From sequence record NC_007856.1: DNA of 5,486 nt. One strand, written 5' to 3'. Below are positions 1-5,486 of this stretch, in pieces. Position 1 is the first letter of the stretch. Every line of letters begins with the position of its first letter. The position numbers were made by a program, and so were the translations under genes. This stretch comes from Enterobacteria phage ID18. Below the pieces are notes generated by a model, which was given only the letters and a program-made list of their open reading frames with translations, was not told where the DNA came from and ran no database searches.

Positions 1-3
1 TGT

Positions 4-30
4 TTGACTAACTATCTCTTCACTTAACAT
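4..30 (+). promoter_or_regulatory. Candidate promoter pA (gene A promoter) in the H-A intergenic region
   Basis: -35-like TTGACT at 4-9; weak -10-like TAACAT at 25-30 with a 15-nt spacer. Position matches where phiX174 carries a TTGACA-containing promoter just upstream of the gene A hairpin. The -10 is poor, so the call is tentative. Confidence 0.3.
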
Positions 31-56
31 GCCTCCAAATCAACGGAGGCTTTTCT
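31..56 (+). terminator. GC-rich hairpin (GCCTCC / 8-nt loop / GGAGGC) followed by a TTTTCT run; candidate intrinsic terminator that also contains the gene A Shine-Dalgarno
   Basis: Seen directly: 31-36 GCCTCC pairs perfectly with 45-50 GGAGGC (6-bp stem, loop 37-44), followed by TTTTCT at 51-56. As I recall it, phiX174 has a near-identical GCCTCCAAATCTTGGAGGC-TTTTTT element immediately before the A start codon. Confidence 0.5.
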
Positions 57-58
57 AC

Positions 59-1814: not shown

Positions 1815-1995
1815 CGCGCTTGATGAAGAAAAATGGCTCAATATGATGGGCGCTCTTCTTAAGGACTGGTTCCGCTATGAACAACATTTCGTACATGGCA
1901 AAGAATCAATGCTTGACATTCTAAATGAACGTGGCCTATTATCCACCTTGCCAAATGGCTTAACTTACAAAGGAATCAAAAATGAAAGCAAATGA
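1726..1995 (+). CDS. C: Protein C (89 aa; switches stage II to stage III DNA synthesis and assists ssDNA packaging)
   Basis: ATG at 1726-1728 overlaps the A stop TGA at 1727-1729 (ATGA). The product [21 protein letters not shown]...[13 protein letters not shown]...[13 protein letters not shown] matches phiX174 protein C. The track ORF 1708..1995 begins at an upstream GTG and is probably over-extended. Confidence 0.85.
1913..1942 (+). promoter_or_regulatory. Candidate promoter pD (inside gene C, driving D-E-J-F-G-H)
   Basis: Perfect -35 TTGACA at 1913-1918 and -10 TATTAT at 1937-1942 with an 18-nt spacer, about 40 nt upstream of the D start. The homologous phiX174 sequence GCTTGACATTTTAAAAGAGCGTGGATTACTATC is the known pD location. 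Confidence 0.55.
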
Positions 1996-2555: not shown

Positions 2556-3836
2556 ATGTCTAACGTACAAACTTCCGCTGAACGTATTCCGCATGACCTC
2601 TCACATCTGGTATTCGAAGCTGGTAAAATCGGACGCCTTAAAACTATCTCCTGGACTCCTGTTGTCGCTGGTGATTCTTACGAAACTGAAATGGTAGGCG
2701 CTATTCGTCTTTCTCCTCTCCGTCGTGGTCTGGCTGTCGACTCTCGCGTCGACGTCTTTACTTTCTATATCCCTCATCGTCATGTCTATGGTCAACAATG
2801 GATTGACTTTATGAAGACTGGCGTTAACGCTACTCCTCTGGCTCCGGTAACTTGTTCCTCTGGCTGGGATTCTGCTGCCTATCTTGGCACTATCCCGTCA
2901 ACTAATTTGAAGGTTCCTAAATTCCTTCATCAATCTTATCTCAATATTTACAACAACTACTTTAAGCCGCCGTGGTCTAATGACCTCACCTATGCTAACC
3001 CATCTAATATGCCCGCTGAGGATTACAAATGGGGCGTTCGTGTCGCTAACTTAAAATCTATCTGGACCGCGCCCCTTCCTCCTGATTCATTAACTAAGCA
3101 GGATATGACTACTGGCGCTACCACTATCGATATTATGGGCCTACAAGCTGCCTATGCTAAACTCCACACTGAACAGGAACGTGACTATTTCATGACTCGC
3201 TACCGCGATATTATGAAAGACTTTGGCGGTCACACCTCCTACGACGGTGATAACCGTCCTCTGCTCCTGATGCGCTCTGAATTTTGGGCCTCTGGCTATG
3301 ACGTCGACGGTACTGACCAAACTTCATTGGGTCAGTTCTCTGGTCGCGTCCAACAAACCTTTAATCATAAAGTGCCTCGCTTCTATGTTCCTGAGCATGG
3401 CGTAATTATGACTTTATCTGTTACTCGCTTCCCTCCTACTCACGAAATGGAAATGCACTATCTCGTCGGTAAGGAATCTCTGACTTATACTGACATTGCC
3501 TGTGACCCTGCTCTTATGGCTAACCTGCCTCCGCGTGAAATTGAGGTAAAAGACCTCTTTCACTCTGCTGGTACTGGTAAATTCAAAATTGCCGAAGGTC
3601 AATGGTATCGTACTCAGCCTGACCGCGTTGCCTTCCCTTATAACGCTCTTGACGGCTTCCCTTTCTATTCTGAACTGCCGTCTAATGATATTCTCGAACG
3701 TGTACTTGTTCGAACTGATAACTATGATGAAATCTTCCAGTCTATGCAACTTGCACACTGGAACATGCAAACTAAATTTAACACTACTGTATATCGTCAT
3801 ATGCCTACCACTCGTGATGGCATCATGACGTCATAA
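2556..3836 (+). CDS. F: Major capsid protein F (426 aa)
   Basis: AAGGA at 2545-2549, 6 nt before the ATG. The product is collinear with phiX174 F along its full length (MSN.QT.AER.PHDLSHL, RLSPLRRGLA.DS, IDIMGLQAAYA.LHT.QERDYFM.RY, GTDQTSLGQFSGRVQQT, LPPREI, FKIAEGQWYR, TTRD.IMTS). Confidence 0.95.
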   Translation: MSNVQTSAERIPHDLSHLVFEAGKIGRLKTISWTPVVAGDSYETEMVGAIRLSPLRRGLAVDSRVDVFTFYIPHRHVYGQQWIDFMKTGVNATPLAPVTCSSGWDSAAYLGTIPSTNLKVPKFLHQSYLNIYNNYFKPPWSNDLTYANPSNMPAEDYKWGVRVANLKSIWTAPLPPDSLTKQDMTTGATTIDIMGLQAAYAKLHTEQERDYFMTRYRDIMKDFGGHTSYDGDNRPLLLMRSEFWASGYDVDGTDQTSLGQFSGRVQQTFNHKVPRFYVPEHGVIMTLSVTRFPPTHEMEMHYLVGKESLTYTDIACDPALMANLPPREIEVKDLFHSAGTGKFKIAEGQWYRTQPDRVAFPYNALDGFPFYSELPSNDILERVLVRTDNYDEIFQSMQLAHWNMQTKFNTTVYRHMPTTRDGIMTS

Positions 3837-3845
3837 AACAAAACG

Positions 3846-3881
3846 TTGAACGGGTACAAATTTTAATTTGTGCCTGTTCAA
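3846..3881 (+). other. F-G intergenic imperfect hairpin (about 13-bp stem including G-T/G-U wobble pairs, AT-rich loop)
   Basis: 3846-3858 (TTGAACGGGTACA) pairs with 3869-3881 (TGTGCCTGTTCAA) around the loop AATTTTAATT. It sits in the 92-nt F-G untranslated region, which in phiX-like phages holds the post-F terminator and complementary-strand priming signals. Confidence 0.4.
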
Positions 3882-4472: not shown

Positions 4473-5486
4473 ATGTTCGGTGCAATCGCTGGCGGTATCG
4501 CCTCCTCTCTCGCTGGTGGACTCCTGAACAAAGCATTCGGGGGCGGTTCTTCCGCTCCCCAATCTGGCGTTCAAGGTAATGTCCTCGCTACTGACAATAA
4601 TGTAATCGGTGCTAATGATGCTGGTATCAAATCCGCTATTCAGGGTTCTAATCCTCCCAATGGTCAACAAGCTGCTCCCAATGCTATATCGGGCGTTCTT
4701 GCCGATACTGGCAAAGACGCCCTATCTTCAATCACTGGCGCTGGCGTTAATAAACTTATGGAAAAAATCGGACTCTCTAAAGATGCTGCTGCTAAAGGTA
4801 AGGATACGAAAGATTATCTTGCTTCTGCGTTCCCCGAACTCAACCCGTGGGAACGTGCTGGCGCTGGTGCTTCTTCTGCTGGAATGGTTGATGCGGGATT
4901 CCAAAACCAAAAGGAATTAACTCGCATGCAGCTTGACAATCAAAAAGAAATCGCTAAGATGCAAAACGACACTCAAAAGGATATCGCTGGTATCCAGTCT
5001 GTTACTTCTCGGCAAAATACTAAGGACTCTGTGTATGCTCAAAACGAAATGCTCCAATACAACCAAAAAGAATCTATGTCACGCGTTGGCGCTATTCTCG
5101 AAAACACAAGCCTCACCAAACAACAACAAACTTCTGAAATTATGCGGCAAATGCTTACTCAGGCTCAAACCTCAGGTCAACACTTTACAAATGACCAAAT
5201 CCAAGAACTTACTCGAAAGGTCGGCGCTGATATTGATGCTGTTCGTGCTAACACTGAACGTACACATGTAGAAACGGACCGCTCTAAGCAGGAGGTCCAA
5301 AACTCTCGTTACGCTTCCTCACAAGTCGGTAAAACCGCCAAGGATGTATCAAATGTCATTAGTGACGCATCTTCTGGTATTGTTGATTATTTTCGTGGCG
5401 TTGATAAAGCTGTCGCGGATACTTGGAACAATTATTTCAAAGATGGCAAATCGGATGGGATAAGCTCAAACCATCGTACCAAATAA
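4473..5486 (+). CDS. H: Minor spike / DNA pilot protein H (337 aa)
   Basis: AAGG at 4461-4464, 8 nt before the ATG. The product is collinear with phiX174 H ([132 protein letters not shown]). Stop TAA is the last three bases of the window. Confidence 0.93.

Follow-up and report, generated by a model that had tools for sequence, protein, structure and literature searches.

Regulatory element candidate within gene C

The question raised by this locus is whether a TTGACA and a TATTAT hexamer, lying inside gene C of a phage genome and directly upstream of gene D, form the promoter (pD) of the transcript that begins with D. The window, by which is meant the whole stretch of DNA analyzed (5486 nt), is a complete genome of a phiX174-type microvirus other than phiX174 itself (Microviridae, Bullavirinae; Gequatrovirus, G4-like). 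Alignment gave 98.4% identity over the whole window with coliphage WA14 (5486 nt), 97.5% with EMCL318 and approximately 83% genome-wide with G4 and ID11, placing the window in a WA14/EMCL318 sub-lineage, and phiX174 was only approximately 75% identical across the promoter region. A 2859-nt IMG/VR record was identical to a 2859-nt stretch of the window. Open reading frames together with WA14 annotation gave the gene order A-B-K-C-D-E-J-F-G-H, as follows:

To 1729: gene A
1282–1644: gene B
1644–1814: gene K
1726–1995: gene C (annotated thus in the 98.4%-identical WA14 record)
1982–2443, + strand: gene D, encoding the external scaffolding protein; first gene of the pD transcript
2157–2432: gene E
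Between E and F: gene J
2556–3836: gene F
To 4462: gene G
4473–5486: gene H

Public records of G4 and WA14 carry no promoter or transcription start annotation, and the phiX174 RefSeq record marks the A and B starts only.

Sigma70 promoters are defined by a TATAAT -10 and a TTGACA -35 hexamer separated optimally by 17 nt, with transcription starting approximately 6–9 nt after the -10. Upstream of D the following elements were located:

1913–1918, + strand: -35 hexamer TTGACA, 6/6 consensus; C codons 63–65 (cTT GAC Att; L63-D64-I65)
1919–1936, + strand: spacer TTCTAAATGAACGTGGCC, 18 nt, one base over the optimum
1937–1942, + strand: -10 hexamer TATTAT, 5/6 consensus; C codons 71–73 (cTA TTA Tcc; L71-L72-S73)

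This TTGACA-18-TATTAT arrangement matches the consensus at 11 of 12 positions and was the best site in a consensus scan of the window and in a simple weight-matrix scan of both its strands. An earlier note on this DNA had reported these hexamers and their 18-nt spacer inside C, with coordinates and strand that proved correct; its placement of the site about 40 nt before D also agrees with the 39 nt measured from the end of the -10 to the D ATG at 1982. The hexamers occupy the 3' third of gene C, in a part overlapping neither K nor D. The -35, a -10 retaining A2 and T6, and a spacer within the 16–18 nt range are those of a sigma70 promoter, albeit with a suboptimal spacer, and the location on the viral-sense strand, in the 3' part of C and directly upstream of D, is that of pD. 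Neither an extended -10 TG nor a clear upstream A/T tract or UP element was found at the 1913–1942 site.

Comparison with the D promoters of phiX174, S13, G4 and ID11

Three canonical promoters are present in phiX174, before A, B and D, and the D promoter lies wholly inside gene C. The phiX174/S13 pD (Sinsheimervirus) has been mapped by footprinting and in vivo assays, work for which Arquint and Spencer (1987) and Sorensen et al. (1998) are cited. Its TTGACA -35, 18-nt spacer, placement at C codons 63–65 and 71–73 and distance of 39–40 nt to D are the same as in the window, and both the downstream gene order and the terminator hairpins also match. Alignment and codon register are identical with those of the mapped phiX174 hexamers (320–325 and 344–349), which makes the site orthologous in position to the D promoter of phiX174/S13. 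Besides the approximately 75% identity of the surrounding DNA, differences were observed at two points: the phiX174 -10 is TACTAT (4/6), leaving that of the window one base closer to consensus, and the C/D overlap is 14 nt in the window, which has a longer C tail, as against 4 nt in phiX174. The claim that the site matches the known phiX174 pD location therefore holds for the codons, -35, spacer and distance to D, but by homology rather than identity because the genome is G4-like.

Experimental data from phiX174 bear directly on these positions. Substitutions at 319, 321, 323 and 324, in or adjoining the -35 and two of them silent in C, all lower the D transcript, with -35 mutants ranging from no D-promoter transcript to roughly gene B's amount; a later paper puts the loss of D transcript in such mutants at 75–80%. 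A 2026 saturation-mutagenesis preprint found synonymous changes at C codons V63, D64, L71, L72, S73 and S75 to be detrimental and assigned this effect to pD. The first five of these codons (63, 64, 71, 72 and 73) are those holding the motif in the window.

Within the genus, a D-promoter has been named in experimental-evolution studies of G4/ID11 (PMC4958007). ID11 and G4 share both hexamers and the spacer length with the window (TTGACA-18-TATTAT). Four of the 18 spacer bases are different, the sequences diverge downstream in the leader and C tail, and in G4 gene C stops before D rather than overlapping it. ID11 mutations at 1909–1935, corresponding by alignment to window 1915–1941, were called D-promoter mutations and formed the main adaptive target, present in 91% of evolved wells; lysis comes later in phages with either of the two common mutations, 1910 A>G and 1911 C>T. 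The deposited ID11 wild type carries TTGACA-18-TATTAT at 1907–1936, and deposited evolved clones carry TTGGCA (1910 A>G) or TTGAAA (1911 C>A), equivalent to window positions 1916 and 1917. Weaker versions of the D-promoter were selected repeatedly in laboratory evolution, and the adaptation of ID11 mainly through down-mutations of pD implies that the site matters.

Distribution of the element across the Bullavirinae

To extend the comparison, 24 sequences were aligned over the 130 nt before D and a weight-matrix scan was run over the 400 nt before D. In every clade, and hence in all three Bullavirinae genera, the homologous site was the best sigma70-like site before D, with the following forms:

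G4-like: TTGACA or TTGACT, 18 nt, TATTAT; -10 to D ATG 34–39 nt
phiX174 and Lilledu: TTGACA, 18 nt, TACTAT; -10 to D ATG 40 nt
Alpha3-like: TTGACG, 17 nt, TACATT; -10 to D ATG 29–46 nt

TATTAT was the -10 of all G4-like sequences, and TTGAC was kept at the -35 position in 23 of the 24 aligned sequences. The exception, an alpha3-like sequence (L010; IMG/VR UViG_2974698926, 6259 nt), has approximately 190 nt inserted between the end of C and D (approximately 912–1176), and because of this insertion its TTGACG-17-TATATT is located 236 nt upstream of D instead of the usual approximately 45 nt. In alpha3-like phages (Alphatrevirus) the TTGAC -35 lies, as in the window, in the end of gene C. Unlike in the window, the end of C directly follows the -10, which leaves the leader in intergenic DNA. 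Alpha3-like protein C is only approximately 36% identical, and this divergence, together with the ending of the gene at the -10, indicates that the element has been retained independently of its coding context.

Taken with the hexamers themselves, these comparisons very probably identify the site as the pD of this G4-like microvirus, a constitutive promoter recognized by host sigma70 and situated inside gene C. Promoter activity has been shown in phiX174 and is implied in ID11, and by analogy is expected in the present genome. The interpretation of the site as pD for the D-onward transcript, also proposed in the earlier note, is supported by the phiX174/S13 orthology and the naming of the ID11 D-promoter, with read-through from the B promoter contributing as well.

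Contribution of pD relative to the B promoter

How much of the late message would originate at pD is a separate matter, as part of the phiX174 D–H message derives from the B promoter by read-through. It could be argued that RNA polymerase binds the site but that its role is minor or conditional, most D–H message being B-promoter read-through. RNA-seq of phiX174 shows transcript flux rising only 2 to 2.5-fold across pD, the 18-nt spacer is suboptimal, and Sorensen et al. (1998) are cited for the finding that cloned phiX174 pD gave no detectable signal in one reporter context, from which it follows that its activity is context-dependent. Against this, point mutations in the phiX174 -35 cut the D transcript (by 75–80% in the summary cited above), fitted models place pD as the strongest of the three phiX174 promoters, ID11 adapts chiefly through down-mutations of pD, and the -10 of the window is nearer consensus than that of phiX174. 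A merely minor role for the site is accordingly very unlikely.

The description of the promoter as strong in the earlier note stands as a statement about consensus match (11/12) and is limited to it, because the spacer is suboptimal and auxiliary elements are lacking; the authors of the phiX174 RNA-seq study moreover regarded the phage promoters as weak relative to common ones.

Synonymous constraint within the pD hexamers

The hexamers coincide with codons for L-D-I and L-L-S, and the motif might simply be a coding by-product of protein C with no role in transcription. Protein C of G4-like and phiX-like phages conserves residues D64, L72 and S73, and the window holds no excess of promoter-like sites overall (11 in the scan compared with 8.7 ± 2.6 in shuffles). 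The entire genome was shuffled 2000 times with dinucleotides preserved; 5.6% of the shuffled genomes contained a + strand match of 11/12 or better, the average being 0.06 such matches per genome. When protein C was instead held fixed and synonymous codons were redrawn from the phage's own usage, many codon choices were possible and only 0.4% of 20,000 recodings produced an 11/12 match at any position within the free part of C; the observed hexamers themselves have a probability of approximately 0.004 given the protein C sequence and phage codon usage. The -10 is built on rare leucine codons, CTA and TTA representing 4% and 15%, respectively, of Leu codons in the genome, and their third bases never vary.

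Conservation was analyzed in 14 distinct G4-like, Lilledu-like and phiX174 sequences over the non-overlapped part of C (codons 31–75). The third base varied in 35 of 43 degenerate codons and was invariant in only 8, and four of these eight were codons 63, 64, 71 and 72, all with their third base inside the hexamers. Hexamer third positions were thus invariant in 4/4 cases versus 4/39 for other degenerate codons (hypergeometric 70/123,410 = 5.7e-4, a value based on four sites and related sequences). Outside the hexamers, variation was observed in the adjoining first bases of codons 63 and 71 and at synonymous sites of the spacer. Inside them it fell on position 6 of the -35 and position 3 of the -10, the least critical hexamer positions. 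These data demonstrate that selection acts on synonymous sites of C inside the pD hexamers. Together with the persistence of the element in alpha3-like phages, where C differs and ends at the -10, and the reduction of D transcript and fitness by silent mutations in the phiX174 hexamers, they largely refute an origin of the motif in coding alone, which we regard as slightly less probable still than a minor promoter.

Use of an overlapping promoter-like site on the minus strand (1945 to 1918, 9/12) is a weaker alternative, and this site was rejected as a chance match because it is not conserved, its -10 (ATTCTA on the + strand, 1918–1923) being ATACTG in G4/ID11.

Other promoter-like sites in the window

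Two further sites scoring 10/12 were rejected as promoters. The first, TTAACA-16-TATTAT at 2244–2271 in D/E, is restricted to the WA14/EMCL318 and ID2-like lineages, the remaining relatives carrying TCAACA and/or TCATCA or TTATCA. RNA-seq of phiX174 has recorded an unexplained increase of reads mid-gene E. The second, TTGACA-16-TAAGAT at 4933–4960 in H, is not conserved: the bases aligned with its hexamers in phiX174 are CTGGAC and CGAGAT. At both sites the synonymous positions vary freely in relatives; the two look like chance matches and provide internal controls for the conservation of pD.

Three additional sites were observed. At 1820–1847, 93 nt upstream of pD, TTGATG-16-TATGAT overlaps the conserved C motif LDEEKWLNM. 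G4, phiX174, Lilledu and ID2-like phages have weaker counterparts at the same location, but with variable synonymous sites, and the site is distinct from the putative phiX174 btss49, 157 bp upstream of pD. In the H–A gap (window 1–58), TTGACT (4–9) and TAACAT (25–30) are followed directly by a hairpin at 31–56, resembling the phiX174 pA/TH arrangement. A perfect TTGACA at 1247–1252 lies 30 nt before the start of gene B (1282), and the -10 candidate that follows it at a distance of 17 nt, GGGAAT, is poor; it is unlikely to be the B promoter, because the phiX174 record annotates the B transcript start approximately 176 nt upstream of B.

Predicted start, leader and extent of the pD transcript

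In the proposed mechanism, host sigma70 RNA polymerase would bind both hexamers on the double-stranded replicative form and initiate near G1950, 8 nt after the -10. The phiX174 D mRNA starts approximately 9 nt past its -10 by classical mapping, and the prediction rests on this and on sigma70 geometry. The relevant features are:

1949–1951, + strand: predicted start, most likely G1950
1950–1981, + strand: predicted 32-nt D mRNA leader, also encoding the variable C-terminal tail of C
1968–1974, + strand: Shine-Dalgarno AAAGGAA within the predicted leader
2524–2537, + strand: GC hairpin GGGGCTTCGGCCCC in the J–F gap, equivalent to the TJ partial terminator of phiX174; first exit for pD transcripts
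31–56, after H: hairpin GCCTCC...GGAGGC with T-run, final terminator in the proposed read-through

Codon S75, at which synonymous changes are detrimental in phiX174, adjoins the position equivalent to the predicted start. An AAAGGAA or GGAG motif before the D ATG was conserved in every locus compared. The fold of 1950–2010 was no more stable than that of shuffles (z = +1.07), which predicts an accessible ribosome site, and a leader hairpin or attenuator was rejected since no structure beyond chance was found in this interval. Scanned in full against Rfam at gathering threshold, the window matched no family, which places the pD site outside any catalogued RNA element. Within gene C, length and sequence vary most in the C-terminal tail (1943–1995), C being 84–89 aa, and this variability is consistent with a region shaped mainly as D mRNA leader.

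The pD message, with its short unstructured leader, would carry D, E and J and, by read-through of partial terminators after J, F and G, would extend to F, G and H, as in phiX174, where TJ, TF, TG and TH are partial and generate nested transcripts. A long imperfect hairpin (TTGAACGGGTACAAATT / AATTTGTGCCTGTTCAA) in the F–G gap at 3845–3881 is a likely post-F terminator; the G4 F–G gap also holds the complementary-strand origin. The pD message would add to read-through from the upstream B promoter, and through the two sources combined the scaffolding, lysis and capsid genes are proposed to receive most mRNA.

Significance of the D promoter in G4-like phages

The D promoter has been known for decades in phiX174 and S13 and is recognized in G4-like phages, and its presence here is not unexpected. 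Its value for annotation is that it marks the expected start of the main late transcript in this genome. Codons 63–73 of C carry a second, non-coding layer of information, and nominally silent changes there are therefore not neutral, a point relevant to recoding, refactoring or attenuating such phages and to the reading of mutations from evolution experiments. A more speculative suggestion, which we consider unlikely, is that the near-consensus TATTAT of G4-like phages could make their pD stronger than that of phiX174 and that natural selection holds it above the laboratory optimum, a reading prompted by the repeated sweeps of down-mutations in ID11 cultures. If true, promoter strength, acting via gene E on lysis timing, would be a tuned ecological trait differing between microvirus genera.
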